This document shows, one piece after another, positions 1 through 14,365 of a stretch of DNA of 64,000 nucleotides. The translations under genes and the position numbers were made by a program. The notes beneath the pieces are model-generated. The model was not told where the DNA came from, made no database searches, and saw nothing but the letters and a program-made list of their open reading frames with translations. Location of the stretch: contig CACGUF010000003.1 in NCBI GenBank assembly GCA_902576125.1, forward strand, positions 35,311 through 99,310, given 5' to 3'. Numbering within the stretch: the first letter of the stretch is position 1; every line of letters begins with the position of its first letter. This DNA comes from an uncultured Alphaproteobacteria bacterium (GTDB lineage: Bacteria; Pseudomonadota; Alphaproteobacteria; HIMB59; GCA-002718135).

Positions 1-652
1 CTTTTTCATTTTCTGTTTCACGCAAAACTTCTTTAATTGAAGAATAAATTAAATTAGGTCCATTTGAAATTTTTTCTGCTACTTCCCAAGCTCTTTTTAA
101 TAACTCATCTTTATTAACAATTTCATTAATTAAACCCCAATGCTTAGCTTCTTTTGTATCCATCCATCTTCCAGTCATTAAAAACTCTACTGCTACGTGA
201 TAAGGAATTCTTCTTCTTAATTTTATTGTAGCAGCATCTGCAACAACTCCTACATTAATTTCAGGTAATGCAAATGTTGCATGTTCAGAAGCTATTATAA
301 TATCTGCTGAAATCATTATTTCAAAACCGCCACCACAAGCAATACCATTTATAGCGGCAATAATAGGTTTGTTCATATTTGGTAATTCTTGCAAACCACC
401 AAATCCTCCTACACCATAATCAGCATCCGCTGCTTCTCCTTCATTAACAGCCTTAAGATCCCATCCTGCTGAAAAAAATTTTTCTCCACCACCAGTAATA
501 ATAGCTACTTTAAGATTAGGGTTATCTCTAAAATCAGAAAATATATTACCTAAAATTATACTTGTCTTAGCATCAATAGCATTAGCTTTTGGTCTATCAA
601 TTGTAACTTCAAGAATTGAGTCTATAATTTTAGTTTTGATTGGTTCGCTCAT
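1..652 (-). CDS. Enoyl-CoA hydratase/isomerase (crotonase) family protein, CaiD-like; N-terminal ~217 codons only, 3' end lies beyond the window edge
   Basis: Not in the ORF track because it runs off the window. My translation of the minus strand from ATG 652..650 reads MSEPIKTKIIDSILEVTIDRPKANAIDAKTS...ITGGGEKFFSAGWDLKAVNEGEAADADYG...INGIACGGGFE...MTGRWMDTKEAKHWGLINEIV. This is a crotonase fold, and the DRPKANAIDA and EKFFSAGWDLKA blocks closely resemble carnitinyl-CoA dehydratase CaiD as I remember it. Its start overlaps the upstream stop as ATGA at 649-652. Confidence 0.85.
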   Translation of the reverse strand, partial: MSEPIKTKIIDSILEVTIDRPKANAIDAKTSIILGNIFSDFRDNPNLKVAIITGGGEKFFSAGWDLKAVNEGEAADADYGVGGFGGLQELPNMNKPIIAAINGIACGGGFEIMISADIIIASEHATFALPEINVGVVADAATIKLRRRIPYHVAVEFLMTGRWMDTKEAKHWGLINEIVNKDELLKRAWEVAEKISNGPNLIYSSIKEVLRETENEK

Positions 653-2703
653 AATTCTTCAAAATAATGTATTAGTGCATCCACTGCAAACACACCTTTA
701 TTTTTTTTACAAACTATTAGTGGATTAATTTCTATTTCATGTAATTTATTGATATTTTTTTCAGCAAATTTAGATAATGAAAGTATTACTTTAATTAAAC
801 TATTGATATCCGCTCTATCTTGATTTCTGTAACCAAATAATATCTTACCTATTTTCATATTTTTTAATTCATTTTGAATATCTTTTTTTGTTAATGGTAA
901 TAATAAAGTTTTAGTCTCTCTAATTAGTTCTGTATAAATTCCTCCGGCGCCAATTACTATTACAGGACCAAATTCATCATCAATTTTAATTCCTACTAAA
1001 ATTTCTATTAGTGAATCTTTGACCATTTTCTCTAATAAAATTTGATTTTTAAATTTTTTTGTTTTGGACACTAATTCATTAATATTTTTAATATTAGTTA
1101 TGACACCATTATGTTCAGATTTGTGAAAAATTTGGTTTGAGTGAATTTTAGCAACTAATGGAAAACCAATTTTAGTACTATCTTTTTTTAATTTAATTTT
1201 ATTTGAAATTATTCCTTTAGGGGTTTTAATTCCAATTTGTTTTAGAAATTTTTTTGACTCAAATTCAGAGTAAGTTTTAATATTTTTATTATTATTCTTT
1301 ATTTTATAGTTTTTTACAGCAGATTCATTCTTCCAAATACTTCCAATTTCTATTGCTTTTTTAATTGTGAATAAAGCCTCTTTCATTCCTTGAAGAGGTG
1401 AAATTCCATTATTAATACATTTATCTCTAATATGTTTTGGCATTGTGTCTGATAATGAAGAGATGAGGCTTCCATTTTTATATTTTTTTGCAACTTTTAT
1501 AAATTTATCAACTATTGCATCCCACTCATCAGTATCGCATTTTTCCATATTTGGAAAATCAAGCATTAGGCTAATTGAACTAAAATTATTTTTAAAAAAT
1601 ATTTTGAATGTTTTTTCAATATTATCAGGATCATTCCAGTTATATGTTTGCATATCGAAAGGATTAGAAACTATTACACCTGGATGATTTACTTTTTTTA
1701 GAGCAGTTTTAATTTGTGGTTTAATTTTTCCAAATTTTAAATTTACAGTTTCTGCAGCATCTCCTAACATTGCCATATCTCCACCTGAGGGTCCCATAAT
1801 TGATATTTGATCATTTGAAATAACTCCATGGGTATGAAAATATTTTAGTAACTCTGTAAGTTCTGATAAAGTTTCACATCTGGCAACTCCCATTCTTTTA
1901 AATAAAGCATCGTAAATACTTTCTTTGCCACTTAATGAGCCTGTATGAGTTAAAATTGTCTCAGATGCAACTTTTGATCTGCCAACTTTGACAATAGCTA
2001 TTGGGATTTTTTTTTCTTTGGAGATTTTTAAAACTCTAATTAGTTTATTTATGCTTGTGAAACCTTCAGCGTAAATACCGATTGCCGTAACTCTTTTATC
2101 TTTCAGAGCATATTCAATTGTATCCTCAATGCTTATTTTAGCCTGATTGCCCAATGATATGATGTATCCTATTGGAAGAGATCTGTGATTAAAGCTAATC
2201 GTATTTCCAATAGTTCCACTTTGACAAATAATAGCTACACCTTTGTTTGTTTGACTACCCGCAACCTGATCTGACCAAACTGAAACTTTATCGAAATAAT
2301 TAATAAATCCATAACAATTAGGGCCTAAAAAAGGAGTTTTACCTGAATTAATTATTAACTTTTTAGTTTTTTCTTTGCCCTCTGCAGTATTTAATTCTGA
2401 AAATCTTGAAGCTAAACATACAGCGCCTCCAGCACCAATTTCAGAAATATCTTTCATTAATTGAATTGTTAAATCATTTGAAACTGCAATATAAACGCAA
2501 TCAGGAATTGATGGTAAGTCAGCTAAACTTTTATAATATTTCTTTTTTTTTGAACTGCTTCTTTTAGGATTAATGTGCCAAATTTCTCCTTTAAAACCAA
2601 TCTTTATATTTTCATCATAAACAAAGTCAGCCCAATATCCTCCAATTATTGCAAGTTTTTTTGGTCTAAATAATTTACTTAAGTTCACAAAATTAAGCCC
2701 CAA
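649..2703 (-). CDS. Acyl-CoA synthetase of the ADP/NDP-forming type (CoA-binding, succinyl-CoA-synthetase-like and C-terminal ATP-grasp domains)
   Basis: 684 aa. The N-terminus (KKLAIIGG, GPNCYGFIN, ICQSGT) is typical of CoA-binding/ligase-CoA domains. The C-terminal ~220 aa (ESKKFLKQIGIKTPKG...GFPLVAKI...VGIKIDDEFGPVIVIGAGGIYTE) looks like an ATP-grasp. The start is ambiguous: TTG at 2703 (11-nt overlap with the upstream gene) or GTG at 2688. Confidence 0.8.
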   Translation of the reverse strand: MGLNFVNLSKLFRPKKLAIIGGYWADFVYDENIKIGFKGEIWHINPKRSSSKKKKYYKSLADLPSIPDCVYIAVSNDLTIQLMKDISEIGAGGAVCLASRFSELNTAEGKEKTKKLIINSGKTPFLGPNCYGFINYFDKVSVWSDQVAGSQTNKGVAIICQSGTIGNTISFNHRSLPIGYIISLGNQAKISIEDTIEYALKDKRVTAIGIYAEGFTSINKLIRVLKISKEKKIPIAIVKVGRSKVASETILTHTGSLSGKESIYDALFKRMGVARCETLSELTELLKYFHTHGVISNDQISIMGPSGGDMAMLGDAAETVNLKFGKIKPQIKTALKKVNHPGVIVSNPFDMQTYNWNDPDNIEKTFKIFFKNNFSSISLMLDFPNMEKCDTDEWDAIVDKFIKVAKKYKNGSLISSLSDTMPKHIRDKCINNGISPLQGMKEALFTIKKAIEIGSIWKNESAVKNYKIKNNNKNIKTYSEFESKKFLKQIGIKTPKGIISNKIKLKKDSTKIGFPLVAKIHSNQIFHKSEHNGVITNIKNINELVSKTKKFKNQILLEKMVKDSLIEILVGIKIDDEFGPVIVIGAGGIYTELIRETKTLLLPLTKKDIQNELKNMKIGKILFGYRNQDRADINSLIKVILSLSKFAEKNINKLHEIEINPLIVCKKNKGVFAVDALIHYFEEL

Positions 2704-3844
2704 GAGGTCTTAACAAAGATCTTGAGATAATATGCCTTTGGATTTCACTTGTGCCTTCCCAAATCCGCTCTATTCTTGCATCACGCCAGATTCTTTCTAG
2801 TGGAATGTCAGACATCAAACCCATTCCTCCACATATTTGGATTGCTTCATCTGATACTTTGCCAAGCATTTCTGTGCAGAATAATTTTGTCATTGCTGCA
2901 TCTTGTGAGGAAAGAGTTTTTTGATCAATCTTCCATGCAGACTCAAGTAGCATTAGATTTGCAGCTTTAATATTTGTGGCCATATCTGCTAATTTAAAAG
3001 AAACACCTTGAAACTTTCCAATTACTTTTCCAAATTGTTTTCTATTAGCTGACCAGTCAAGTGCAATATCAAATGCTCTTTCTGCCCTTGATACAGAAGT
3101 TGCTGCTACTGTTAATCGTGTTGCTTCTAACCACACATTCATTAATTCAAAACCTTTATCCTTTTCACCTAAAATATTTTTTCCAGGTATTCTGCAGTCA
3201 TTAAAATTGATAACATTATTTACATATCCTCTATGAGAAACACAGTCGTAGCCCTTAGCTACTTCAACACCTTTTTGATGAAGATCAACTAGAAAACATG
3301 ACAATAAATTTCTTCCTTGTTCATCAGTTCCAGTTGAGGCAAATAAAACAACAAAGTCAGAAATATGAGCATTTGATATAAAATGTTTAGTTCCATTGAT
3401 TACCCAATCATCACCATCTTTTTTTGCATTTGTTTTCATTCCTCTAAGATCAGAACCAGCTTCAGGTTCAGTCATTGCAATACAATCTTTTCTTTCACCT
3501 GTGATAGCTGGCTTTAAGTATTCATCAATTAATTCACCCTCACAGGCCATTAAGATATTTTGTGGACGCCACGCAATTTCAGCTAAGGCAAGAGATGCGA
3601 AACCTAAATGTTTTTCAACTAAAGTTAAATCAAAAGCATTTAAGCCACCTCCACCATGCTCAACCGGCATATTGCAAGCATACAAACCAGCTTCAATGCT
3701 TTTTTTCTTAATTTCATTATATAATTCTTTAGGTAAATTATTTGTTTTTTCTAATAATTCTTCGTGTTGAAGCAATTCTGCTTTTACAAATGACTTAGTA
3801 GTATCAATTAAAAGATTCTGTTCTTCTGAAAGATTAAATTCCAT
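2693..3844 (-). CDS. Acyl-CoA dehydrogenase family flavoprotein
   Basis: 383 aa. ACAD hallmarks are present: CIAMTEPEAGSDL, WVINGTKHFISNA, QFGKVIGKFQGVSFKLADMA, and the C-terminal catalytic-Glu block RIWEGTSEIQRHII. ATG at 3844. Confidence 0.9.
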   Translation of the reverse strand: MEFNLSEEQNLLIDTTKSFVKAELLQHEELLEKTNNLPKELYNEIKKKSIEAGLYACNMPVEHGGGGLNAFDLTLVEKHLGFASLALAEIAWRPQNILMACEGELIDEYLKPAITGERKDCIAMTEPEAGSDLRGMKTNAKKDGDDWVINGTKHFISNAHISDFVVLFASTGTDEQGRNLLSCFLVDLHQKGVEVAKGYDCVSHRGYVNNVINFNDCRIPGKNILGEKDKGFELMNVWLEATRLTVAATSVSRAERAFDIALDWSANRKQFGKVIGKFQGVSFKLADMATNIKAANLMLLESAWKIDQKTLSSQDAAMTKLFCTEMLGKVSDEAIQICGGMGLMSDIPLERIWRDARIERIWEGTSEIQRHIISRSLLRPLGA

Positions 3845-3850: not shown

Positions 3851-5053
3851 TTATGTAAACGCAGGTGTTTCATTTCTTCTTGGATTGTTAAAAAATTGCT
3901 TTTTAACCACTTTACATTCAGCCCAAATTTTTCTGTAATCCAGCTCTTCTGGATGATAAATTTCAGCATAAACATTTGATCCTAATTTATAATGTTCTTT
4001 GCTAACAAATCCAATCGCAATATTAGATTTAAGGACAGGGGACCACATTGCAGCTGTCACTATACCAATTTCTTTGGCTTGATTTTTTTTACTATTATCG
4101 TAGAGTACAGAACCAACGGCAGGCTTATCTCCTTCAATATCTAATCCCACGAGTTTTTTTTCAGGACCTTTTTCTTTGTGTCTAATTAATGCCTGTTTTC
4201 CAGTAAAATACTCTTTATCTAGATTTACTAACCAGCCCAAACCTAATTCATAGGGGTTTCTCATTCTATTTGGTCTTAAAGCTTGTTCCGCAGACATAAA
4301 ATCTACATTAGGTTGGATAAAACCAGCTTCAATTCTCACCATCTCAAGTGCATTCATCCCAGCTGCTAGTACTTTATAGTCTCTATTAAATTTAAATAAA
4401 CTATCCCATACATCAATGGCTTGAGAAGGGTCACACCATATTTCATAACCTAAGTCTCCAGAAAAACCTGTTCTGGAAATTGTAACATTATGATTTTCAA
4501 GATTATAATTATTAAAATGAAATGGTTTTAGGTTTTCTATATTTTCTACTTTTAATAAATTTAATATCTTACAAGATAACGGCCCTTGAAAAGCTAAAGC
4601 GGCAATTGATGGACTTATATCCTCAACACTTGCATTAAATCCCGTAGCTGTGTCAGAAAACCAATTTAGATTTCGTTCTGCACAAAAAATTCTAAAATGA
4701 TTTTCATTAAAGCAAAATATTGTTCCATCATCAATTACCATTCCATCTTCATTGCACCATATGCCATAGGCAACTTGGTTTGATTGAATATTAGTAATAT
4801 CTTTGGTGATTAATTTATTAATAAACTTTTTAGCATCCTCACCTTTGATATCATATTTATGCATAGGAGTAATATCAATTACCCCAGCTGTATTTCTCAT
4901 TGAAGTATACTCAAGTTCTGTTGATGAGTACTCTTTAGCAACTTTATAACCAGCCCATCTATACCAATCATTTGCATAACAATGCTCAGATGTTCTTTCG
5001 TGAAAAGGTGTCTCTAAGAGAGGTTTTTTGTATGATATTTTTGATGTATTCAT
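3851..5053 (-). CDS. GcvT-family (aminomethyltransferase-fold) folate-binding protein, stand-alone
   Basis: 400 aa. The N-terminus TPFHERTSEH..WYRWAGY...EYTSMRNTAGVIDITPMHKYDIKGEDA, together with RTGFSGDLGYEIW and a C-terminal barrel domain, matches the GCV_T/GCV_T_C architecture. Its ATG (5053..5051) shares one nucleotide with the upstream TAA (TAATG). Confidence 0.85.
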   Translation of the reverse strand: MNTSKISYKKPLLETPFHERTSEHCYANDWYRWAGYKVAKEYSSTELEYTSMRNTAGVIDITPMHKYDIKGEDAKKFINKLITKDITNIQSNQVAYGIWCNEDGMVIDDGTIFCFNENHFRIFCAERNLNWFSDTATGFNASVEDISPSIAALAFQGPLSCKILNLLKVENIENLKPFHFNNYNLENHNVTISRTGFSGDLGYEIWCDPSQAIDVWDSLFKFNRDYKVLAAGMNALEMVRIEAGFIQPNVDFMSAEQALRPNRMRNPYELGLGWLVNLDKEYFTGKQALIRHKEKGPEKKLVGLDIEGDKPAVGSVLYDNSKKNQAKEIGIVTAAMWSPVLKSNIAIGFVSKEHYKLGSNVYAEIYHPEELDYRKIWAECKVVKKQFFNNPRRNETPAFT

Positions 5054-6519
5054 TATTTTAAATCCTCTATTACTTTTTTTGCAGCATTAAGACCGTTGAT
5101 ACCTGTTAATCCCCCTCCAGGATGGGTTCCTGCACCACATAAATATAAACCATTTATAGGTGTAGAATATTGAGCTGATCCATAAAAAGGTCTCATCATT
5201 AATAATTGATCTATTTCTAAATCACCGTGATGCCAATGCCCTCCTGCTATATTAAACTTTTCTTCCATTTTATTGGGAGTGATGAGTTTTTGTTTTACTA
5301 TTTTCATATCTGGAATAAATTTACTTAAAACTGAAACACATCTTTCAATTATTTCATTTTCTTGATGATTAGTATTAATTAAATACGGAACATAATAAAC
5401 ATTAGCTGATAAGGTTTTTTGATTAACGTAAAACTCAAGGCATGGATTTTCAGAATATTTGTTATATTTATTAGCATTAAATGCATGTTCTATGTACTTA
5501 ATGCCAGGAGCATAAATAAACTTTCCGTTCATTTTTTTATCAATATTATTAATGTTAATTTCATTTTCTAAAGCTAATTCAAGCTTAGCAACATTTCCTT
5601 TATTTCTAAAATTTTTAGTTCTTCTAATAAAATCAGTATCTAGGATTTCTGCACCTAATAAATTTAAATAAGTTGTTTTAGGGTCAGCATTAGACATTAC
5701 ATATTTTGATTCAAAACCCTCACCATTAGTTAATTGAACGCCAGTGACAGAGTTATTTTGAGTTAATATTTTTTTAACTTCAGAGGATTTAATGATTTCA
5801 ACAGTATTTTTATTACAGCAATCTTCTAACTGATTAATATATTCTGCAACTTCTATTTTGTTTAAATTAAAAATATTGTCATTGATAGCTTGTTTATAAA
5901 GTAAAGTTAATATTGAGCCTGGAGATCTTGGACCTAGGTTTGTTCCTAAAACAGCTTCATGGGATAATAGACCCATTAGATTATTGTTATTTAAATTATC
6001 TTCTAAGTCATCTGCGATATTTAAACCAATTACTCTTAATAGTTCACGCATATTTTTTTTACCTAATTTTCTAATTTTCCATCCCATAGAAATTAATTGA
6101 AATAAGTCAGCTCTTTTACCTGATTTAACTCTTGGTGGTTTTTGAAACATAAATGCACCAAGAGTTTTTGAAAACAATTTGTAGTTATTGATAATTGACA
6201 AGAATTTCTTTTGATCATTTTCATCAGCATTTGTTTGAACAAAAGATAATTTGCCGTTTTTATCTGACAAAATAGTATGATTTTGATTATCCTCTAGTGA
6301 TATAATATTATTTGAATGATTAATATTATTAACATTAATCCCTAATTCTTTTTTAATGATTGGTGAGATACAGTTTAGTGATTCTGCATATTCCGCTAAT
6401 CCTCCAACGTTTTCGTTTTTTTCAATTACCAAAACTTTTTTTCCTTTTTTTGATAAGTATGAAGATGCAACTAATCCATTGTGACCTCCACCAATTATTA
6501 TGACATCAAATTTTTTCAT
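5053..6519 (-). CDS. NAD(P)/FAD-dependent oxidoreductase, amine-oxidase/phytoene-desaturase fold (COG1233-like), paralog 2
   Basis: 488 aa. It has an N-terminal dinucleotide-binding motif FDVIIIGGGHNGLVASSYL..VLVIEKNENVGG and a C-terminal LYLCGAGTHPGGGLTG motif. Both are shared with the adjacent paralog. ATGA overlap at 6516-6519. Confidence 0.8.
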   Translation of the reverse strand: MKKFDVIIIGGGHNGLVASSYLSKKGKKVLVIEKNENVGGLAEYAESLNCISPIIKKELGINVNNINHSNNIISLEDNQNHTILSDKNGKLSFVQTNADENDQKKFLSIINNYKLFSKTLGAFMFQKPPRVKSGKRADLFQLISMGWKIRKLGKKNMRELLRVIGLNIADDLEDNLNNNNLMGLLSHEAVLGTNLGPRSPGSILTLLYKQAINDNIFNLNKIEVAEYINQLEDCCNKNTVEIIKSSEVKKILTQNNSVTGVQLTNGEGFESKYVMSNADPKTTYLNLLGAEILDTDFIRRTKNFRNKGNVAKLELALENEININNIDKKMNGKFIYAPGIKYIEHAFNANKYNKYSENPCLEFYVNQKTLSANVYYVPYLINTNHQENEIIERCVSVLSKFIPDMKIVKQKLITPNKMEEKFNIAGGHWHHGDLEIDQLLMMRPFYGSAQYSTPINGLYLCGAGTHPGGGLTGINGLNAAKKVIEDLK

Positions 6520-8144
6520 ATGTAATGTGTTGATATTTTCATCTTTAAATCTTTTAATATTTCTCTTGCTGCATTAGCTCCAGGTGCACCCATAACACCT
6601 CCGCCAGGATGCGTGCTTGATCCACACATATATAGATTTTTGATTGGTGTCTTATATTGAGCATAACCAGGTACTGGACGATTAAACATTAATTGGTCCA
6701 TGGTTAGTTCACCTTGGAATATATTGCCTTCAGTTAAACCAACCTCAGATTCTATTTCTTTAGGAGTTCTAATTTCTGCATGATTGATAATATCATTAAA
6801 GTTTGTCGAGTAATTGCCAATTCTATTCATTACATGTTTACCAAATTCAAGACGTTTCTCCTCAGTCCAACCTCCATTAGCTAAATTGTAGGGTACATAT
6901 TGAATAAATACAGACATATAATGTTTTCCTTGTGGTGCCATAGTTGGATCATTGATGCTTGGAATGCACATATCAACATAAGGAAATTGTGACCACTTAC
7001 CATCCTTCCAATCATCGTAAGCTCCTTCCATCTCTTCTATGTTTTGCGTTATATGCAAATCACCAGTGCCAGCAGGATCACCAACTGGAATACTCTTCCA
7101 AATAGGAAGATCATCAAGAGCAATATTTAATTTTCCTGATGAGCCTCTAATTTTAAAATTTTTGACAGCTTTATAAAAATCACTAGGTAATTCTTTTTCT
7201 TCTACAACTTTTAAAAAAGTTCTTTTTACATCAAGGTTAGAAACTATTTTATCTGCATAAATTTCATCACCATTCTCAAGAACAAGTCCATAACTTTTGT
7301 TATTTTTGATAAGAATCTGACTTACTGGTGAACCTGCTTTTATTTCACCATTGTTTGATTTTAAAGATGACGCCATAGCTTTTGTAATTGAGCCCATTCC
7401 TCCTCTGGAATACCCCCATGCTCCAACAGTCCCATCTACTTCTCCCATGTAATGATGTAATAATACATAAGCTGATCCAGGGGAATAAGGCCCAAGCGCT
7501 GTACCTATTATTGCAGATCCTGCTAAATGTACTTTTACTATATCTGATTCAAAATATTCTTCTAAATAATCTCTTACGCTCATTGTCCAAAATCTTATGG
7601 TGTCGTAAATTTCTTTTTCACCTAAACCACCAAGCTCATCTTTAGCTGCAAAGTATTTTGCAAATTCAAAAAGACCCATAATATCTTTTGGTTTAAAAGA
7701 AGTAGGGTCAGGAGGAGTCATTTTTAAAAGAGGTTTGATAATTTTGCATTGCCTCATTACATCTTTGCCAAACCTATCATAGGCTTCAGCATCTTTTTTT
7801 GAAAATTGAGCGATAGATCTGTATGTTAAATCATGATCTTGATAATGTGCATAAAATCTACCATCATTAAGCATACTCGCACTACCTTCATAAGGTATAA
7901 TTTGAAGCCCATGTTTTGATAATTCTAAATCTCTAAATATCTCAGGTCTTAATAAGCTGCAAACATATGAGCAATTAGAATAAGTCCAACCTGGATGCAA
8001 TTCTCTGCTAACAGCTGCGCCTCCAACATATTCATGTCGTTCCACAACAATGACTTTGAGACCCGCCTTAGCCAAATAACAGGCTGTGGTTAATCCATTA
8101 TGACCACCACCAATTATAGCAACATCATATTTAGTTTTGTTCAT
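6516..8144 (-). CDS. NAD(P)/FAD-dependent oxidoreductase, amine-oxidase/phytoene-desaturase fold (COG1233 / PYROXD2-like), paralog 1
   Basis: 542 aa. Motifs: YDVAIIGGGHNGLTTACYLAKAGLKVIVVERHEYVGG, GAWGYSRGGMGSITKA, LYMCGSSTHPGGGVMG. This is the first gene of the minus-strand operon. ATG at 8144. Confidence 0.8.
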   Translation of the reverse strand: MNKTKYDVAIIGGGHNGLTTACYLAKAGLKVIVVERHEYVGGAAVSRELHPGWTYSNCSYVCSLLRPEIFRDLELSKHGLQIIPYEGSASMLNDGRFYAHYQDHDLTYRSIAQFSKKDAEAYDRFGKDVMRQCKIIKPLLKMTPPDPTSFKPKDIMGLFEFAKYFAAKDELGGLGEKEIYDTIRFWTMSVRDYLEEYFESDIVKVHLAGSAIIGTALGPYSPGSAYVLLHHYMGEVDGTVGAWGYSRGGMGSITKAMASSLKSNNGEIKAGSPVSQILIKNNKSYGLVLENGDEIYADKIVSNLDVKRTFLKVVEEKELPSDFYKAVKNFKIRGSSGKLNIALDDLPIWKSIPVGDPAGTGDLHITQNIEEMEGAYDDWKDGKWSQFPYVDMCIPSINDPTMAPQGKHYMSVFIQYVPYNLANGGWTEEKRLEFGKHVMNRIGNYSTNFNDIINHAEIRTPKEIESEVGLTEGNIFQGELTMDQLMFNRPVPGYAQYKTPIKNLYMCGSSTHPGGGVMGAPGANAAREILKDLKMKISTHYI

Positions 8145-8152: not shown

Positions 8153-8179
8153 CTTATATTTCTTTGAATGAGCATTCAA
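8153..8179 (-). promoter_or_regulatory. Candidate promoter of the flavoprotein operon: -35 TTGAAT (8179..8174), 15-nt spacer, -10 TATAAG (8158..8153), 8 nt before ATG 8144
   Basis: Hexamers were read directly on the minus strand. The spacer is short (15 nt), and AT-rich DNA makes -10-like hexamers common, so confidence is low. Confidence 0.3.
8164..8179. promoter_or_regulatory. 16-bp palindrome TTGAAT-gagc-ATTCAA; candidate TetR-family operator
   Basis: This is a perfect inverted repeat (it also reads as 7-bp arms TTGAATG/CATTCAA with a 2-nt spacer). It lies in the 76-91 bp divergent region between the flavoprotein operon (start 8144) and tetR (start 8221 or 8236). The same 6+4+6 core recurs at 19226..19241. 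Confidence 0.5.
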
Positions 8180-8235
8180 CCAAATTTCTTGTAAAATCAA
8201 GCTTTTTATGAAAAAATGTAGTGAATTTATTAAAT

Positions 8236-8859
8236 ATGAAACAAAGAAATCTTAGATCAGAAAATAAGAAAAATAGTAATTTAAAATTAATTTCTTCAAC
8301 AATTAAAAATTTATCAAAAAAAGGAATAAATGAATTAACTATGCAAGATGTATCGCAGGGAGCAGGCCTTTCCCAAGGTATAGTCAATTTTCATTTTAAG
8401 AGTAAGGAACTTTTATTAATAGAAACATTAAAGTATATTTCTAACGAGTATCTAGATTCATTTCAAAGAAGTATTGCGAAAAAAGGTAATGATCCAAGAA
8501 AAAAAATCATTGGAATTGTAGAAAATGATTTTAGTAAAAAAATTTGCACTAGAGAAAAAATTGCAGTGTGGTTTACTTTTTTTAGTGAAATTAAATATAA
8601 ACCCGCTTATCATCAAATTTGTAAAGAACGAGATATGTATTACCAATCTTTAACTGAAAATATATTTGATGAACTTATAAAAAAAGAAAAAGTGAAATTA
8701 TCTAAAAAAAATATTTCTAGAGGATTTCAAGCTTTGATTATGGGATTATGGTTAGATCAACTTGAAGATCCAGATACTTTTAACAGGATACAAGCAAAGA
8801 AAATATGTTTTGAGTTTATTAAATCTAATTTCCCCAAACAATTTAAGGGTATGTTTTAA
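8236..8859 (+). CDS. TetR/AcrR-family transcriptional regulator
   Basis: The N-terminal HTH is INELTMQDVSQGAGLSQGIVNFHFKSKELLL, followed by a helical ligand-binding domain. The ORF track starts at GTG 8221. I prefer ATG 8236 (MKQRNLRSE...). Confidence 0.85.
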   Translation: MKQRNLRSENKKNSNLKLISSTIKNLSKKGINELTMQDVSQGAGLSQGIVNFHFKSKELLLIETLKYISNEYLDSFQRSIAKKGNDPRKKIIGIVENDFSKKICTREKIAVWFTFFSEIKYKPAYHQICKERDMYYQSLTENIFDELIKKEKVKLSKKNISRGFQALIMGLWLDQLEDPDTFNRIQAKKICFEFIKSNFPKQFKGMF

Positions 8860-8861: not shown

Positions 8862-10040
8862 ATGTATAGTGGCATGACACCAAAAGCTTTGGAATGGCAA
8901 TTAAAGATAAAAAAATTTGTTAATGATGAATTAATTCCTTGGGAGGTGCATGCAGAAAAAAATGAAGGTGAGTTACCCAAGGAAATTGAAAAAAAACATC
9001 GGGAGATTGCTATTTCACTAGGTTTGCCGGGTATGGGTATTTCAAAAGAAAGCGGAGGCTTAGGATTAAATATGTTTGAACAGATGATAGTTTGGGAACA
9101 ATTAGGCCGAGTTACAAATGCATTATGCTGGTGTTTTTCAGAAGCTCAGGATTGGATGGAAAATAATTTTACTGATTATCAAAAAGAAAATTATTTTAAA
9201 CCACTTTTAAACGGTACTAAAAAAGAATGTTATGCGATTACTGAAAAAGGCGCTGGTTCAGATGTGGAAGGCTCAATTGAAACAACAGCAGAAAAAAAGG
9301 GAGATCAATATATTATTAATGGCGAAAAATGGTATGTTACAAGTGCAAATCTAGCTGATTTTTTCTTTTTACAGGCAAAAATTAAATCTGGCTCAAATAA
9401 GGGTAAGCATTCACTATTTATAATTGATAAGGATGAGAAAGGAATTGAGTTAATAGATAGCCCTAAGTTTAGTCATACATATGCTCATCATCATTCTATT
9501 TATAGGTTTGATAATGTTTCAATTTCAGATAAAAACATAATTGGGAATGAAGGTATAGGGATGGATTATACACATTCCTGGTTTAGGCATGAAAGACTAG
9601 GTATAGCTGCAAGATGCTGCGGGGCTGCTCAAAGATTAATTGATGAAGCAACAATTTTTGCAAAAGAAAGAGAATCTTTTGGTGATAAAATTTCAAACTA
9701 TCAAGCTATACAATTCATGTTAGCAGATAGTGTAAATGAATTAGCCTCAACCAGATTAATGCTTTATGAGGTTTGTAAAGCTCATGATGCAAAACAAGAC
9801 GTTAAAATTTTACATGGAAAATGTTCTATGATTAAATTACTTGCATCTGAAATGGCTAATAGAATTGCTGATCGTGCAGTGCAGATTTTTGGTGGAAGAG
9901 GATATATGAGAGAAAATGTTGCAGAACGTTATTATAGAGAATTAAGAGTGGACCGTATTTGGGAAGGAACAAGTGAAATTCATAGAATTATTATTGCAAA
10001 TTCTCTTTATAAAAGAGGTTTGAAATCTTTAATTGAATAA
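8862..10040 (+). CDS. Acyl-CoA dehydrogenase family flavoprotein (second copy)
   Basis: 392 aa. Motifs: CYAITEKGAGSDV, YIINGEKWYVTSA, SFGDKISNYQAIQFMLADS, RIWEGTSEIHRIII. It starts 2 nt after the tetR stop, so it is probably co-transcribed. Confidence 0.9.
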   Translation: MYSGMTPKALEWQLKIKKFVNDELIPWEVHAEKNEGELPKEIEKKHREIAISLGLPGMGISKESGGLGLNMFEQMIVWEQLGRVTNALCWCFSEAQDWMENNFTDYQKENYFKPLLNGTKKECYAITEKGAGSDVEGSIETTAEKKGDQYIINGEKWYVTSANLADFFFLQAKIKSGSNKGKHSLFIIDKDEKGIELIDSPKFSHTYAHHHSIYRFDNVSISDKNIIGNEGIGMDYTHSWFRHERLGIAARCCGAAQRLIDEATIFAKERESFGDKISNYQAIQFMLADSVNELASTRLMLYEVCKAHDAKQDVKILHGKCSMIKLLASEMANRIADRAVQIFGGRGYMRENVAERYYRELRVDRIWEGTSEIHRIIIANSLYKRGLKSLIE

Positions 10041-10061: not shown

Positions 10062-10946
10062 ATGATAAGTTTTTGGAGAAAAATTTATGCTAAAAATGAT
10101 AATGTTAAAGCCTATACTTTATTATCACCAGCTTTAATTTTAATTATTTTAGCTATGGTCGTACCAATGGTACTAATGTTGAGCTTTAGTATGTTTACTC
10201 AAGTTAACATGATGGAGATAGACTATACTTTTACCTTTCAAAGATATATTGATTTCTTTCAAAAAAAATTGCTTGTCACACTTCTCATAAAGTCTATTAA
10301 AATATCATTTCTTGTAACTTTAATTACTCTGATCACAGCATACCCAGTTTGTTATTACATTGCTTTTTATGTTAAAAAAAACAAAATGTTGTGGCTTGTT
10401 TTGCTTACTTTGCCTTTTTGGACATCATATTTATTAAGAGTATTTTCTTGGAAGATTATTCTTGGAACAAAAGGAGTGATAAACTCTTCATTGATCAACG
10501 CTGGAATTCTTAACGAACCTCTGACATTTCTTATGTATTCAGAAACCGCAGTTGTTATTACCCTTACTCATGCATGGGCTGCATTTGCATTACTACCTTT
10601 ATATGTTTCTTTAGAAAAAATTGACTTTTCTTTTATTGAAGCTGGAAGAGATCTTGGATTATCTCGATTTGAAGTGTTTTGGAAAATTACATTTCCATTA
10701 TCGTTACCTGGTGTAATAGGTGCAATATTAATCATATTCATTCCAACAGTAGGTGATTATGTAACTCCAGCCTTACTTGGGGGAACTGATGGTCGTATGC
10801 TTTCGAATATGATCCAAGCTTACTTTGGAAAAATAAACAATATTCCTCTCGGTGCAGCTTCAGCTACAATTATGTTAACTACTGTTGTAATCATAACAAT
10901 CATTGTATCGAATGTAACAAAAAAACTTACACAAAGGTTAACTTAA
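10062..10946 (+). CDS. ABC transporter permease, PotB-like (spermidine/putrescine-type importer)
   Basis: 294 aa with about 6 hydrophobic spans and the EAA-type loop IEAGRDLGLSRFEVFWKITFPLSLPG. An AAGGAG lies upstream of the start. Confidence 0.85.
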   Translation: MISFWRKIYAKNDNVKAYTLLSPALILIILAMVVPMVLMLSFSMFTQVNMMEIDYTFTFQRYIDFFQKKLLVTLLIKSIKISFLVTLITLITAYPVCYYIAFYVKKNKMLWLVLLTLPFWTSYLLRVFSWKIILGTKGVINSSLINAGILNEPLTFLMYSETAVVITLTHAWAAFALLPLYVSLEKIDFSFIEAGRDLGLSRFEVFWKITFPLSLPGVIGAILIIFIPTVGDYVTPALLGGTDGRMLSNMIQAYFGKINNIPLGAASATIMLTTVVIITIIVSNVTKKLTQRLT

Positions 10947-10948
10947 AA

Positions 10949-11758
10949 ATGAACGAAAAAAATAATACATTATTAATTTACACCCTTCTTTATTTTGGTT
11001 TTCTGTATGTGCCAGTTTTATTCCTACCTATATTTAGTTTTAACGATGCAAATTATATGTCATTCCCTCTTGCTGGATTTACAACGGAGCACTATGAGGA
11101 AATGTGGTCAAAAAGAAATTTACATAAGGCTCTATGGGCGAGTATAAAAGTAGGAGTTGTTGCGAGTGTCATTAGTACAACAATTGCACTTTTTGCCGCT
11201 AAGGCATTTGCTCGATATAAATTTAGAGGGGAAAAGATTTCTTATGGAGGTATAATGATGCCATTTTTGATACCAGAAATTATTTTGGCTGTAGCTATAC
11301 TTATAATTTGGATCAATCTTGGATTTAAATTGGGGCTCGTACCAGTCACAATTGGTCACACTTTATTTTGTACACCTTTTGCAATGTTAATACTTATAGC
11401 CCGTATTGAAGGCTTTGATTTTTCACTTGAAGAAGCCTCTAGAGATTTAGGAGAGAATGCGTGGGGAACATTTTTTAGAGTGTCATTTCCATTATATTTG
11501 CCTGGGATAGTCGCAGCTCTTCTTCTCAGTTTCATAATTTCTTTTGATGAATTTATTCTTGCATTTTTTTTAACTGGGAGTGACGCAACATTACCTATGT
11601 ATATGTGGGGCCAAATGAGATTTGTTCAGAAGTTACCTCATGTACTGGCATTAGGAGCAGTAATTATTGTTTTTACTACTTTTATTGTTTTATTAGCATT
11701 CTGGTTAAGAAATGTTGGACAAGGTAAAGGAAAGAAAGATATAGCTGTGAAATTATAA
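10949..11758 (+). CDS. ABC transporter permease, PotC-like
   Basis: 269 aa with the EAA loop EEASRDLGENAWGTFFRVSFPLYLPG. It begins 2 nt after the preceding gene. Confidence 0.85.
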   Translation: MNEKNNTLLIYTLLYFGFLYVPVLFLPIFSFNDANYMSFPLAGFTTEHYEEMWSKRNLHKALWASIKVGVVASVISTTIALFAAKAFARYKFRGEKISYGGIMMPFLIPEIILAVAILIIWINLGFKLGLVPVTIGHTLFCTPFAMLILIARIEGFDFSLEEASRDLGENAWGTFFRVSFPLYLPGIVAALLLSFIISFDEFILAFFLTGSDATLPMYMWGQMRFVQKLPHVLALGAVIIVFTTFIVLLAFWLRNVGQGKGKKDIAVKL

Positions 11759-11764
11759 AAAATT

Positions 11765-12847
11765 ATGAATAATTCATTTATACAGATCAATAATATTTCA
11801 AAACACTTTAAAGAAGTGAAAGCAGTTGATGATGTTTCATTTGAGATTAAAGAAGGTGAATTTTTTTCTCTTTTAGGACCCTCTGGATGTGGCAAGACAA
11901 CATTGTTGAGATTATTGGCAGGGTTTGAATACCCTACATATGGGAATTTATTAATTGATGGCACAGATATTACTGCTTTACCTCCAGACAAAAGACCTAC
12001 AAATATGGTTTTTCAAAACTATGCGATTTTTCCTCATCTTAATGTTGAAAAAAATATTCAATTTGGACTTAGAAAACTTGACTTAAGTAATGATGAGATA
12101 GGTAATAGAGTTAAAGATGTTCTTACATTAGTCAAGCTAGAGGGCTATGAAGAAAGATTTAGCAATCAGCTATCAGGTGGTCAAAGGCAACGTGTTGCTC
12201 TTGCAAGAGCTTTAGTCAGGCAACCAAAAGTGCTATTATTAGATGAACCTCTTGGTGCTTTAGATAAAAAATTAAGAGATGAAATGCAATTAGAATTAAG
12301 AACTCTTCAAAAAAATATTGGAATTACTTTTGTATTTGTCACTCACGATCAACAAGAAGCTATAAGTATGTCAGACAGAGTTGCAGTTATGAACGATGGA
12401 AAAATTCAACAGCTATCAGCACCCAATGAACTTTATAAGAATCCAAAAAATATATTTGTAAGTGATTTTATTGGTGAAACGAATTTTCTTAAAGCGGAAA
12501 CTAAATCGAGTGATGGAGAATTCATCAATGTTTCAATTGAAGAATTGGGAGAATTTAAAATTAAAAATAATTTAAATATCGCAGCAAATTCTTCGAATGT
12601 TGTTTGTAGTGTTCGCCCAGAATCTATGATGATTTCAAAAGTGAAATCTGACTGGGATATTTGTCTTGATGCTAAGATTAGACAGACTTCATATTTAGGA
12701 GAAATGACTAGATTTTATGTTGAGGTGCAAGGAATTGATAAGACTATCACTGTTTCTTCGCAACATTTTGACAATCAATCTTTTGAAAATAACGAGTGCT
12801 TTATAAGTATTAGCTTAGAAGATATTTCTTTATTGAATAAAAAATAG
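11765..12847 (+). CDS. ABC transporter ATP-binding protein, PotA-like
   Basis: Walker A GPSGCGKTT, signature LSGGQRQRVALARAL, Walker B VLLLDEPLGALD, H-loop FVTHDQ, plus a C-terminal regulatory (TOBE-like) extension. Confidence 0.9.
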   Translation: MNNSFIQINNISKHFKEVKAVDDVSFEIKEGEFFSLLGPSGCGKTTLLRLLAGFEYPTYGNLLIDGTDITALPPDKRPTNMVFQNYAIFPHLNVEKNIQFGLRKLDLSNDEIGNRVKDVLTLVKLEGYEERFSNQLSGGQRQRVALARALVRQPKVLLLDEPLGALDKKLRDEMQLELRTLQKNIGITFVFVTHDQQEAISMSDRVAVMNDGKIQQLSAPNELYKNPKNIFVSDFIGETNFLKAETKSSDGEFINVSIEELGEFKIKNNLNIAANSSNVVCSVRPESMMISKVKSDWDICLDAKIRQTSYLGEMTRFYVEVQGIDKTITVSSQHFDNQSFENNECFISISLEDISLLNKK

Positions 12848-12896: not shown

Positions 12897-13985
12897 TCAA
12901 CCGCCAGCAACCATTTCAGCCCATTGAGCTTCCATATAGTCAGTTACCTCATCTGAAGGCATCACAGAGAACATTCCATTTGAAAGGTGTTCTGCAGGAT
13001 TAGCCGCTACTCCACGTTCCGCTAATTCATCAGCAGTAATTGTGCTAAAGCCTTTCTTGTTTGAATGACCATAACCCCACTCACTTAATAAATAAGCTGA
13101 AGTTTCAGCACTAGTAGCTCCATTAATCATTGCATATGCTTTATCAAGGTCTGCACCTTTAACAATGGCAAGCCCACAAGCCCACGTCATTGTACCATTA
13201 GCAGGTTGCATCATTTTTGCACCAGCATTCCATGCAATTTCGTTCCATCCAAGAGCTACGTCTATTTCTTCGTTACCTAGCGCCTCTACCATTGAGGAAG
13301 TGTCTCCGAAGAATGCACGTATTTGTCCGTTATCTCTCATTTCACGGAACTTATTGATACCTTTATCAATAGCAGCTTTAGTTAATTGATCTTTTTCTCT
13401 GATATCAATTCCAAGATGATGCATCATTAAAAATAATGAGTCAGCAGCTGAGTCTAATATACCAACTTTACCTTTTACTCTTGGGTCTTCCATTAGATCA
13501 AAACTTTCATTATCAGCGTTCATCCATGGAATTCGATCAGCCATGTAAAATAAAGTAGTATCACCCCAATCGATAGGTGCAAAATAATTCTGACCATCAA
13601 CAATACCACTTGGTAGGTCTCTTACTTCAGGAAACATATCATCCCAGTGATCTATTCGAGAAGTGTCCAATGGTTCAAGTACTCCAGCTCTAACCCAACG
13701 AGCTATTTCACCTTGGCATGGCCAAGCTAAATCGACTTCAAAACCAGCTTTTAATTTTTGTAAACCTTCTTCAGCATCACCGAATGTTGAATATTCAGGT
13801 GACCCATGTTCTTCTACATATGTTCCAAATAGTCCATCATCATCATATCCGCCCCATAGAAAAACACTTCCAGGCTCATCAGCAAAAACCTTTGATGTGG
13901 TAAATAATCCGGTTATAAAAACCATCAATATTGCCACCCCTAAAGTTTTTACTAAAAAATTTTTAGTTTCATAGTATTTAGGCAT
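12897..13985 (-). CDS. Periplasmic substrate-binding protein, PotD/PotF-like (ABC importer, family 1)
   Basis: The N-terminus has a signal peptide (MPKYYETKNFLVKTLGVAILMVFITGLFTTSKVFA). The mature protein is acidic, rich in Trp and Gly, and poor in Lys. The ORF track starts at TTG 13997. I prefer ATG 13985, which is preceded by GGGGGT 4 nt upstream. It is convergent with potBCA. Confidence 0.8.
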   Translation of the reverse strand: MPKYYETKNFLVKTLGVAILMVFITGLFTTSKVFADEPGSVFLWGGYDDDGLFGTYVEEHGSPEYSTFGDAEEGLQKLKAGFEVDLAWPCQGEIARWVRAGVLEPLDTSRIDHWDDMFPEVRDLPSGIVDGQNYFAPIDWGDTTLFYMADRIPWMNADNESFDLMEDPRVKGKVGILDSAADSLFLMMHHLGIDIREKDQLTKAAIDKGINKFREMRDNGQIRAFFGDTSSMVEALGNEEIDVALGWNEIAWNAGAKMMQPANGTMTWACGLAIVKGADLDKAYAMINGATSAETSAYLLSEWGYGHSNKKGFSTITADELAERGVAANPAEHLSNGMFSVMPSDEVTDYMEAQWAEMVAGG

Positions 13986-14118
13986 TTTTACCCCCAATAA
14001 ATTTTAATTAATTGCTACATGAACAATAATTTGAGAAAATTTCAATAAAAAATAACAATTTTTATAAATTAGGTTTTAATTTATTTTTTTGAAACCATGG
14101 CTCTATTTGCTCTAATTG

Positions 14119-14320
14119 ATACCCTGCTTGGAAAACGGGTATATATCATCATAGGGATTTCCAACTATTTGTACTCCTGTAAGCACACCATTCTTAGCTA
14201 TGCTTGAACAGATTAATAATACTGGTAATCAATAGGGCATATTAAAAGGGTAAAACAAAGTTCATTTATCTTTAAATTTCAACAGCTGATATATAATGCA
14301 AAACTACAGATATTGCCCTA
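14119..14320. other. Candidate structured RNA or complex regulatory element inside a 380-bp intergenic gap (strand undetermined)
   Basis: GC is locally elevated compared with the flanking AT-rich spacer. Hairpin 1: ATACCC (14119-24) with GGGTAT (14137-42), 12-nt loop. Hairpin 2: AAGCA (14181-85) with TGCTT (14201-05). Long-range helix: TAGGGCATAT (14233-42) with ATAT(T)GCCCTA (14310-20), 10 bp with one bulge. Alternative pairing: TACCCT (14120-25) with AGGGTA (14247-52). All pairs are Watson-Crick, so the strand cannot be inferred. Confidence 0.3.
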
Positions 14321-14331
14321 ATTTAATTAAA

Positions 14332-14360
14332 TAGACATTCAATTTTTTTTTACATATAAT
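14332..14360 (+). promoter_or_regulatory. Candidate sigma-70-type promoter: -35 TAGACA (14332-37), 17-nt spacer, -10 TATAAT (14355-60); ATG at 14366
   Basis: The -10 is consensus, the -35 has one mismatch and the spacing is ideal. Only 5 nt separate the -10 from the start codon, which implies a leaderless or near-leaderless mRNA. The -35 overlaps a one-mismatch copy of the palindrome (TTAAAT-agac-ATTCAA, 14327-14342). Confidence 0.45.
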
Positions 14361-14365
14361 TTTTT

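Follow-up and report, generated by a model that had tools for sequence, protein, structure and literature searches.

Three translationally coupled genes

Which reaction is carried out by two related flavoproteins and a free-standing GcvT-fold protein whose genes overlap one another? The question is raised by a 64,000-nt stretch of contig CACGUF010000003.1 from an uncultured alphaproteobacterium (hereafter the window; all coordinates are window positions), in which the three genes follow each other on the minus strand. The names FlvA, FlvB and GcvT-like were assigned in this analysis:

6516..8144, minus strand: FlvA, 542 aa, predicted PYROXD2-type flavin adenine dinucleotide (FAD) flavoprotein of the CrtI fold; proposed amine-oxidizing catalytic subunit
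5053..6519, minus strand: FlvB, 488 aa, by sequence a diverged FlvA paralog with FAD motifs kept; proposed partner subunit
3851..5053, minus strand: GcvT-like, 400 aa, stand-alone GcvT fold with predicted tetrahydrofolate (THF) binding; proposed acceptor subunit for the one-carbon (C1) unit

On balance, we lean towards reading the trio as a split, three-component, THF-linked oxidative N-demethylase for tertiary or secondary omega-N-methylamines, which would act after a Rieske oxygenase step and before a transamination. That the three proteins act jointly is indicated above all by a gene order and coupling conserved across three proteobacterial classes. In the window, the FlvA stop codon is overlapped by the FlvB start in an ATGA at 6519-6516 of the minus strand (junction ACATATGAAAAAA), and the FlvB stop codon by the GcvT-like start in a TAATG at 5055-5051 of the same strand (junction AAATAATGAAT). 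The original prediction, made from the letters of the DNA, had described exactly these successive minus-strand open reading frames (ORFs) with start/stop overlaps.

A scan with the FlvA alignment, taking one genome per species, returned 541 relatives, and the best 80 (61-100% identity) were examined with 10-kb flanks; neighbor counts refer to the 50 loci with full flanks wherever 50 is the denominator. The 80 loci stem from uncultured marine alphaproteobacterial single-amplified genomes (SAGs) and metagenome-assembled genomes (MAGs), the closest being AG-404-D18, from Pelagibacteraceae/Pelagibacterales, Rhodovibrionaceae, Aestuariispira insulae CECT 8488 and Hyphomicrobiales, and further from Comamonadaceae/Burkholderiaceae, many soil and peat Steroidobacteraceae, Woeseia and Pseudomonadales. 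Of these loci, 74 yielded FlvB and 69 GcvT-like, and the order FlvA, FlvB, GcvT-like was present in essentially every sufficiently long locus (approximately 70 of 80), covering Alpha-, Beta- and Gammaproteobacteria. In 45 of 74 loci, an in-frame FlvB start overlaps the end of FlvA by 4 nt; from FlvB to GcvT-like, most of 68 loci have a distance of -4 to +3 nt. These distances use the nearest start codon and are somewhat generous. The co-occurrence asked of related genomes is thus found, in order and tightly coupled, and this conservation over three classes is far beyond chance.

Homologs are very abundant in marine metagenomes, with thousands of close relatives and single 90%-identity clusters of at least 750 members. 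Public annotations read only 'phytoene dehydrogenase-like', 'NAD(P)/FAD-dependent oxidoreductase' and 'aminomethyltransferase'. No publication on the FlvA-FlvB-GcvT-like system was found in the literature searched, subscription-only papers excepted, which agrees with the earlier remark that the arrangement was not known as a characterized enzyme.

Two observations concern the origin of the sequences. FlvA and FlvB fragments 73% and 64% identical to those of the window occur on short contigs in two Bacteroidota MAG bins (L010, labelled Bacteroidetes, and L021, Salibacteraceae); L010 seems to be a SAR11-type contig placed in the wrong bin. The FlvA protein of the window is 100% identical to that of SAG AG-404-D18 (L001), yet identity falls to 89% in the intergenic region 13998-14365, which also carries an indel, and the acyl-CoA ligase matches L004 with a higher score than L001. 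The window therefore represents a close relative of the AG-404-D18 genome or a mosaic, not the same genome.

The flavoprotein pair and its relation to PYROXD2

Both flavoproteins carry the N-terminal motif IIGGGHNGL, and their C-termini read CGSSTHPGGG (FlvA) and CGAGTHPGGG (FlvB). Together with 29% identity over the full length (183 bits, E = 5e-56), these shared motifs establish them as the paralogs they had been taken for. Pfam assigned Amino_oxidase, NAD_binding_8 and a DAO-type Rossmann domain to each; the flavin amine oxidase model PF01593 reached 59.4 bits for FlvA and 37.3 bits for FlvB (cutoff 19.8), and the GxGxxG...E motif is conserved. With GCV_T and GCV_T_C in the third protein, the domain search of the trio returned what had been expected of it. 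FlvA is strongly conserved, 222 alignment columns being at least 95% identical among 80 orthologs.

FlvA is a homolog of the mammalian protein PYROXD2. Entries of PYROXD2 were located with a human query sequence, which retrieved named primate entries at 98% identity, and the database entries were then used for comparison. FlvA aligns with mouse PYROXD2 (P0344) over the full length at 38% identity (382 bits, E = 7e-131), and FlvB at 24% (148 bits). Three FlvA-specific motifs are common to PYROXD2, namely GGAAV..E..PG.K.S..SY..SLLRP.I..DLEL.KHGL, YVLLHH.MG...GAW.Y..GGMG and GGNIF.G. None of them occurs in FlvB, and every FlvB has GGHWHHG in their stead. By sequence, FlvA is a member of the PYROXD2 subfamily and its bacterial counterpart.

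FlvB, in turn, looks like a functional partner rather than a decaying copy, since it retains the FAD fingerprint (G10, G12, H13, N14, E33, G39 and G40) and the C-terminal C..HPGG motif; among its orthologs (n = 70), GxGHN..E, GGHWHH and C..HPGG are conserved. The FlvB of the window lineage is without a PGFKVS-type segment (approximately 12-14 aa), an IPS..DP..AP.G.H segment (approximately 11 aa) and the GGMG motif, as seen when window 5053-6519 is compared with L006:11629-13158 and L013:11605-13167. This looks like a lineage-specific reduction of the partner subunit. A metagenomic entry of 904 aa (P0103) was considered as an FlvA-FlvB fusion and rejected: it has a frameshift at the ATGA junction, where it reads HPRRRGDGC and not the normal HPGGGVMG, and its FlvA part is truncated. 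The case is a caution for mining databases for fusions.

Human genetics supplies a pointer to the chemistry of this subfamily. The PYROXD2 locus controls trimethylamine and dimethylamine (PMC3169529), and it is associated with N2-acetyl-N6,N6-dimethyllysine (PMC13352909) and with the ratio of N6,N6-dimethyllysine to N-methylpipecolate (PMC11953310). As N-methylpipecolate should arise only from the mono-methyl amine, the latter would act as the ratio of substrate to downstream product of a demethylase that converts a dimethyl into a monomethyl omega-amine. The metabolite pattern fits that expected of a tertiary omega-N-methylamine demethylase. The link between PYROXD2 and N-methylated amines, which the original prediction had made, is accordingly real, both in the 38% full-length identity with FlvA and in the metabolite quantitative trait loci (mQTLs). 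In the literature searched to July 2026, with the same exception for subscription-only papers, PYROXD2 is still without an assigned reaction. We know of no FlvB-like or dedicated GcvT-like partner of PYROXD2.

A stand-alone GcvT-fold protein outside the known families

The third protein matched GCV_T (189.7 bits) and GCV_T_C (41.6 bits) in Pfam and nothing else; as had been noted of this 400-aa GcvT-fold protein, it has no flavin domain of its own. Its classification rests on curated hidden Markov model cutoffs and on a ranking of PDB scores. The model scores were:

Tdm: 250.6 bits, cutoff 1100; best NCBIfam model, matched at positions 387-754 only (C-terminal half), DUF1989 being absent
GcvT (PRK00389): 228.1 bits, cutoff 300
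GcvT (TIGR00528): 187.3 bits, cutoff 235.85
DmdA (NF009133): 165.8 bits, cutoff 410
SoxA (TIGR01372): 157 bits, cutoff 1164

Because all curated cutoffs are missed, GcvT-like is, by its sequence, a member of no characterized family, and it lies in particular outside the DmdA family (166 vs 410) and the GcvT family (187 vs 236; 228 vs 300), where membership would have spoken against the original prediction. Among solved structures, the scores were 163 bits for T. maritima GcvT, 152 for B. subtilis GcvT, 144 for Tdm, 101 for DmdA (3TFH), 81 for SoxA and 72-73 for DMGDH/DMGO. One earlier impression did not hold: the N-terminus had been thought closer to the folate domains of SoxA and DMGDH than to GcvT, but scores over the whole protein favor the C-terminal part of Tdm (251) and GcvT (228) over SoxA (157).

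In the alignment to T. maritima GcvT, M51, Y83, D96 and E195 correspond to identical residues (M64, Y96, D109 and E204), and R227 is replaced by L236, as in Tdm; these five positions of the T. maritima protein are those that we take, from the 1WOO-series structures, to form the folate site. Across 67 orthologs, the conservation of M64, Y96, D108/D109, E204 and R240 reaches at least 95%, R240 also being among the positions aligned with folate-site residues of the T. maritima protein. The folate-contact residues are hence present, and since they are both aligned and conserved, GcvT-like is very probably a functional folate-dependent C1 acceptor. Neither gcvH nor gcvP was among the annotated neighbors within 10 kb in the window and in four further loci (L006, L015, L081 and L085). 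An exhaustive search of 1.84 billion representatives yielded 579 relatives of GcvT-like at E <= 1e-30, nearly all of them stand-alone proteins of approximately 400 aa.

The catabolic island around the trio

The three genes had been proposed as a unit. Their conserved order and coupling uphold this, but the unit is not self-contained, as it makes up the core of an island with over 11 genes. The chemistry of the trio is constrained by the other members: a Rieske oxygenase, an omega-transaminase, an aldehyde dehydrogenase (ALDH), a BetI-like TetR and an ABC transporter of the Pot type. In the window, the operon runs on past 3851 into the genes of an acyl-CoA dehydrogenase (ACAD), a ligase and a hydratase, with a 6-nt junction followed by overlapping ones. 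The features of the window are:

2..652, minus strand: CaiD-like enoyl-CoA hydratase, truncated by the window start; 89% identity over 217 aa to the L002 ortholog (tblastn)
649..2703, minus strand: ADP-forming acyl-CoA ligase, 684 aa, overlapping the ACAD1 gene; CoA_binding_2, Succ_CoA_lig and ATP-grasp_5 domains
2693..3844, minus strand: acyl-CoA dehydrogenase 1 (ACAD1), 6 nt after the GcvT-like stop; Acyl-CoA_dh N, M and C-terminal domains
8164..8179, FlvA/TetR divergent promoter: perfect palindrome TTGAATGAGCATTCAA, candidate TetR/BetI-type operator
8221..8859, plus strand: BetI-like TetR, divergent from FlvA; TetR_N and TetR_C_6 domains; 106 and 102 bits to BetI models, both sub-cutoff
8862..10040, plus strand: acyl-CoA dehydrogenase 2 (ACAD2), 34% identical to ACAD1
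10062..12847, plus strand: Pot-type ABC transporter; permeases 10062-10946 and 10949-11758, ATPase 11765-12847
12897..13997, minus strand: divergent Pot-family periplasmic substrate-binding protein (SBP); SBP_bac_8 domain, PotF only 44 bits, best PDB entry 66 bits
14366-15751 and 20490-21854: two PuuA-like glutamine-synthetase (GS) homologs of PuuA/PauA type
15741-17870: AguB and AguA, AguB passing its equivalog cutoff (441 > 410)
17870..19207, minus strand: DAO-family FAD oxidoreductase, candidate secondary-amine oxidase; pipecolate-oxidase-like at 160 bits
19261..20493, plus strand: Rieske non-heme-iron oxygenase of betaine N-demethylase type, Stc2/GbcA-like
21922-23238: second DAO-family flavoprotein, PuuB/pipecolate-oxidase-like, as is 17870-19207

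The top NCBIfam models of ACAD1 were acryloyl-CoA reductase (269 bits) and crotonobetainyl-CoA dehydrogenase (190 bits), both sub-cutoff. The ligase matched the 4-hydroxybutyrate--CoA ligase model over its full length (250 bits, sub-cutoff), and its gene comes after GcvT-like in several distant loci. For the L002 ortholog of the hydratase, crotonobetainyl-CoA hydratase ranked first (291 bits vs cutoff 500). The transporter scored 187 bits with PotB, 169 with PotC and 386 with PotA, and it passed the cutoff of the potA subfamily (369 > 356). The best PDB match of the Rieske protein was Stc2 (3VCA/4QUP, 263 bits), while CntA reached 138 bits across the Rieske domain only; the best NCBIfam model of the island Rieske proteins was GbcA, with 295-330 bits (330 for the window protein) against a cutoff of 670. 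The DAO protein at 17870..19207 is 43% identical to a member of the L006 operon, and it is an operon partner of the trio in Pelagibacteraceae.

Gene arrangements in other lineages show the same parts in different orders. In Pelagibacteraceae, FlvA-FlvB-GcvT-like-aminotransferase (AT)-Rieske-DAO-PotB-PotC-PotA form one co-directional string with gaps of 0-40 nt, upstream of which lie TetR, an MFS transporter, GNAT, a second AT, ACAD and a PuuD-like hydrolase. In the window lineage, the genes past the window start encode an omega-AT, MFS, GNAT, an HD-domain protein, a 4HBT thioesterase, BKACE, a carnitine-dehydrogenase-like 3HCDH protein and a zinc-dependent alcohol dehydrogenase. In soil Steroidobacteraceae, a PotF-like SBP (388 bits), an HD protein, PotC/PotB, TetR, ALDH, Rieske and AT precede the trio, which is followed by PotA, a fusion of carnitine 3-dehydrogenase with a thioesterase, another TetR and ACAD; the fusion scores above its equivalog cutoff (603 > 592). 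The neighbors were counted as follows:

Class-III aminotransferase: 49 of 50 loci
PotA: 46 of 50 loci (PotABC 43-46 of 50)
TetR: 45 of 50 loci
Rieske oxygenase: 54 of 80 loci
ALDH: 24 of 50 loci (29 of 80)
HD-domain protein: 22 of 50 loci (28 of 80)
ACAD: at least 21 of 50 loci
Carnitine dehydrogenase: 19 of 50 loci
CoA ligase: 14 of 50 loci
BKACE: 10 of 50 loci
Enoyl-CoA hydratase: 10 of 50 loci

The conserved core hence consists of a Pot-type importer, TetR, FlvA/FlvB, GcvT-like and an omega-transaminase, usually with the Rieske oxygenase and often with an ALDH. The AT belongs to one of two subfamilies, the SpuC/GABA-T/polyamine:pyruvate type in 14 loci (best PDB entries 3I5T, 5KR6, 9J4Z and 6HX9) and a GntE/HemL-like type in 36 loci. 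This non-orthologous displacement shows that the pathway itself requires the transamination of a primary amine. The island ALDH is PuuC-like and reaches 484 bits with BADH.

The palindrome of the FlvA/TetR promoter has near-copies in the DAO/Rieske intergenic region (19226-19241, one mismatch) and in that between the SBP and GS-like genes (14327-14342, two mismatches), and four palindrome-like matches were observed in the window where 1.4 were expected. The exact palindrome stands just upstream of FlvA in 7 close relatives and also in a gammaproteobacterial MAG (L064) whose FlvA is only 61% identical. It presumably resembles known BetI boxes. These matches suggest that a BetI-type operator joins the trio, the transporter region and the Rieske/DAO pair in one regulon.

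Some further features of the islands were noted. The intergenic region 13998-14365 between the SBP and GS-like genes is unusually long (368 nt) and relatively GC-rich, and it is 78-89% conserved in SAG loci L001-L003, where approximately 1.2 kb of extra sequence splits it. An Rfam scan of this region came back empty at a threshold as loose as E <= 1. A small RNA that lacks an annotation, a leader and the remains of a gene are possible identities for it. The HD-domain protein of approximately 190-205 aa (L060:3271-3858, L015:1564-2181, L081:16910-17479) is without a Pfam match, and models of PhnZ/TmpB-type HD oxygenases give 37-43 bits, across the HD motif only. In soil clusters, a 383-aa ORF (L015:15483-16634), an uncertain call in high-GC DNA, lies between PotA and carnitine dehydrogenase; it has weak matches to the alkaline-phosphatase superfamily (Metalloenzyme 22 bits, Phosphodiest 20 bits) and none in NCBIfam. 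At the far end of the window, 58000-64000 has a GC content of approximately 20% compared with approximately 29% elsewhere and holds a 410-aa ORF without a Pfam match (57999-59231), a Der/EngA-type GTPase (59234-60520) and an MMPL-like membrane protein (61051-63426).

Proposed reaction and substrate

Taken together with the island, the following route is proposed. A cationic substrate would be imported by the Pot-family ABC transporter, and if its nitrogen is quaternary, the first methyl group would be removed by the Stc2/GbcA-like Rieske monooxygenase. FlvA, in a heteromer with FlvB, would then oxidize an N-methyl group of the tertiary, possibly also of the secondary, amine to the iminium, and GcvT-like would capture the C1 unit on THF to give 5,10-methylene-THF, as do the GcvT folds of DMGDH, SoxA and Tdm. 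In marine versions, the step from secondary to primary amine may fall to the co-operonic DAO-family flavoprotein. The primary amine would be converted to the aldehyde by the neighboring omega-amine:pyruvate transaminase, and the aldehyde to the acid by the neighboring ALDH. Written as a sequence, R-N+(CH3)3 would become R-N(CH3)2 (Rieske), R-NHCH3 (FlvAB with GcvT-like and THF), R-NH2 (FlvAB again or DAO), R-CHO (omega-AT) and finally R-COOH (ALDH). The BetI-like TetR would repress the genes via the TTGAATG-N2-CATTCAA operator. We infer the formation of a complex, the demethylation chemistry and the order of the steps, as well as any substrate, from the domains, homologies, synteny and retained motifs described above. 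As regards the oxidative demethylase of separate subunits that had been predicted, family placement, folate residues and co-occurrence all leave it standing, as a candidate in both activity and assembly. The alternative of an S-demethylase found no support, as sulfonium demethylation of the DmdA type needs no flavoprotein.

Any particular substrate is, taken singly, rather unlikely to be the right one. Our leading guess is the group of gamma-butyrobetaine-type omega-trimethylammonio acids, which come first in fit because they explain the CaiD-like hydratase, the ACADs, the CoA ligase, carnitine dehydrogenase, BKACE and the thioesterase. Their route would lead through dimethyl-, methyl- and aminobutyrate (GABA) to succinate semialdehyde and succinate. 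N-methylated diamines are a second candidate and would fit the PotF-like SBP and the polyamine genes; trimethyl- and dimethyllysine are a third and would fit the genetics of PYROXD2. The transporter type does not exclude quaternary amines, since the Pot-type SBP SAR11_1336 of SAR11 was shown experimentally to bind glycine betaine and dimethylsulfoniopropionate (DMSP; PMC11485210). The window SBP has no close PDB entry and is at most a possible ortholog of SAR11_1336; the SBP is truncated in every Pelagibacteraceae locus, and the cluster members include no named cultured strain of SAR11. The carnitine island described for Arctic SAR11 (PMC12421898) is a different locus without the trio.

Several findings weigh against the proposed N-demethylase. 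The characterized relatives of FlvA (CrtI, CrtD and CrtO) catalyze C-C and not C-N chemistry. The AlphaFold2 model of FlvA, built from an alignment of 10 sequences, is of low confidence (pLDDT, its per-residue confidence score, 62), and it served only for confirmation of the fold family. The FlvB of the window lineage has lost segments that other FlvBs keep. No fusion of a flavoprotein with a GcvT domain was present among the 579 relatives of GcvT-like, the long ones being tandem GcvT proteins, Tdm or a helix-turn-helix fusion. No electron acceptor of the electron-transferring flavoprotein or ferredoxin type is encoded nearby. The agmatine and gamma-glutamylation genes of the window (14366-23238) indicate that the co-location may partly reflect a general amine island. 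Finally, the Pot transporters are in the classical view specific for polyamines, the SBP of the soil clusters resembles PotF (388 bits), and unmethylated polyamines carry no C1 unit.

Alternative explanations

With the carnitine genes in the foreground, the trio could instead be a dimethylglycine/sarcosine demethylase that replaces DgcAB, DMGDH or SoxBDAG at the end of a funnel from carnitine or choline via glycine betaine to glycine. Carnitine dehydrogenase, BKACE and thioesterase would deliver glycine betaine, the GbcA-like Rieske oxygenase dimethylglycine, and FlvAB/GcvT-like (with DAO) glycine. A carnitine 3-dehydrogenase that passes its equivalog cutoff, BKACE and the 4HBT thioesterase do occur in the same islands; however, the carnitine genes are accessory, being present in 19 (dehydrogenase) and 10 (BKACE) of 50 loci. 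The top NCBIfam model of the Rieske proteins is GbcA, but they reach less than half of its cutoff. BetI-like regulators, the score of the ALDH with BADH and the glycine betaine and DMSP binding of SAR11_1336 all suit this route, the latter provided that the window SBP is an ortholog. The route leaves no role for the omega-amine:pyruvate transaminase, which 49 of 50 loci have together with the trio and which is interleaved with it in the Pelagibacteraceae operon. Moreover, mammals have DMGDH and SARDH for these substrates, while the PYROXD2 mQTLs indicate other amines. We consider this explanation unlikely, and it is the one that survives best.

The polyamine genes raise a different possibility, that FlvAB is a C-N oxidase or dehydrogenase of spermidine, norspermidine or diamines like polyamine oxidase or SpdH, with GcvT-like not capturing a methyl-derived C1 unit. 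A Pot-type transporter with a PotF-like SBP in soil clusters, an AT resembling SpuC and polyamine:pyruvate transaminases, a PuuC-like ALDH and, nearby, PuuA-like GS homologs, a PuuD-like hydrolase and AguA/AguB would all be at home in such a pathway. The FlvA model also has flavin amine oxidases as predicted structural neighbors, including putrescine and spermine oxidases, with NicA2 and MAO, behind CrtD and CrtI. Yet unmethylated polyamines offer no C1 unit to a protein that has a strictly conserved folate site and is encoded in translational coupling with FlvB. The Rieske partner is similar to N-demethylases of quaternary amines, and the regulators are BetI-like. We consider a polyamine oxidase very unlikely.

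Even less probable is a CrtI-type C-C redox reaction (desaturation, saturation or allylic hydroxylation) on, e.g., a CoA ester, with GcvT-like as a mere neighbor that serves another step. The best-scoring characterized families are those of carotenoid enzymes, but their cutoffs are widely missed: the CrtO model gave 284 bits for FlvA and 142 for FlvB (cutoff 1000), and crtI_fam 108 and 73 bits (cutoff 238). CrtI is likewise the closest solved structure to FlvA, with 69 bits only, and CrtI and CrtD lead the Foldseek matches of its predicted model. The paired COG1233 paralogs of CtmAB, which form one enzyme, offer a precedent, and acyl-CoA genes share the operon in the window. In most loci, however, the acyl-CoA genes are absent, while GcvT-like is invariably adjacent with overlapping stop and start codons. 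No isoprenoid or carotenoid genes were found near the trio, and the genetics of PYROXD2 indicates N-methylamines.

That the substrate is tri-, di- or monomethylated 2-aminoethylphosphonate, demethylated to 2-aminoethylphosphonate and mineralized by AT, ALDH and phosphonatase-like or HD enzymes, is hardly to be expected: the HD-domain protein of 22-28 loci with its weak PhnZ/TmpB-type matches, the alkaline-phosphatase-superfamily match adjoining PotA in soil clusters, an AT-plus-ALDH logic that parallels the PhnW/PhnY steps, the 380 bits of the PotA homolog to PhnT2 and the 148-180 bits of DAO proteins to a 'putative aminophosphonate oxidoreductase' model are set against the lack of any PhnS, PhnA or PhnX match, SBPs that match PotF/PotD models only, HD and phosphatase matches far below their cutoffs, and carnitine-type genes that are left unexplained.

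Comparison with known systems

What would be new in the proposed N-demethylase is the flavoprotein family and the split architecture; flavin-dependent oxidation of N-methyl groups with THF capture by a GcvT fold is known. This logic is established for DMGDH, SARDH, DMGO, SoxABDG and MABO, while Tdm uses a metal centre and not a flavin. A further-reaching proposal, which we put forward as a serious but tentative one, is that the trio represents an unrecognized class of THF-dependent N-demethylases on the PYROXD2/CrtI fold, whose context reveals the reaction of human PYROXD2 as the demethylation of tertiary omega-N-methylamines such as N6,N6-dimethyllysine and dimethylamino acids. It would supply a concrete biochemical hypothesis for a human disease gene and one of the strongest mQTL loci, which has been without a reaction for more than a decade. 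If the N-demethylase reading is true, the trio would also be a third, non-homologous solution for demethylation after the quaternary stage, beside the DAO-type fused or heteromeric enzymes and DgcAB/StcD. This solution would be very common in marine metagenomes and common also in soil Steroidobacteraceae, and it would hence change the assignment of C1 and nitrogen fluxes from methylated osmolytes and amines in SAR11-type cells.

Among multi-subunit enzymes, the heterotetrameric sarcosine oxidase SoxBDAG and the N-methylglutamate dehydrogenase MgdABCD resemble the proposed trio, as a flavoprotein oxidizes the N-methyl group, a polypeptide with a GcvT fold passes the C1 unit to THF, and the genes are adjacent. 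In these systems, however, the SoxB flavoprotein is of the DAO family and the GcvT fold is embedded in a SoxA of approximately 1000 aa, whereas the trio has two CrtI/PYROXD2-type paralogs and a bare 400-aa GcvT-fold protein far below the SoxA cutoff (157 bits vs 1164). DMGDH, SARDH, dimethylglycine oxidase and MABO share with the proposed trio the flavin-dependent oxidative N-demethylation and the THF capture by a GcvT fold, and the substrate of gamma-N-methylaminobutyrate oxidase (MABO) is an omega-N-methylamino acid such as the route above would contain. They differ in that one polypeptide carries both a DAO-type flavin domain and the GcvT domain, while the trio has split subunits and an unrelated flavoprotein family; the PDB scores of DMGDH/DMGO are low (72-73 bits).

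The trimethylamine N-oxide demethylase Tdm resembles GcvT-like in its C-terminal GcvT-fold domain, the best-matching model (251 bits), and in the leucine at the position of T. maritima R227, but its N-terminal part is a DUF1989 metal domain, and it does not depend on a flavoprotein. The limonene dehydrogenase CtmAB consists of two paralogous COG1233 flavoproteins with adjacent genes, as is proposed for FlvA/FlvB; unlike the trio, it hydroxylates an allylic terpene methyl group and works without a folate partner. The pathways GbcAB to DgcAB to Sox and Stc2 to StcD follow the same division of labor as the proposed route, with a Rieske enzyme removing the first methyl group and flavoproteins the later ones, and of the known quaternary-amine pathways, it is Stc2 to which the island Rieske protein is closest. 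Their second stage, in contrast, is old-yellow-enzyme-like with Fe-S clusters (DgcAB, StcD) or of DAO type, and none of them uses a PYROXD2-type pair with a free GcvT protein. PYROXD2 itself, an orphan flavoprotein of mammalian mitochondria, shares with FlvA 38% identity over the full length and the FlvA-specific motifs.

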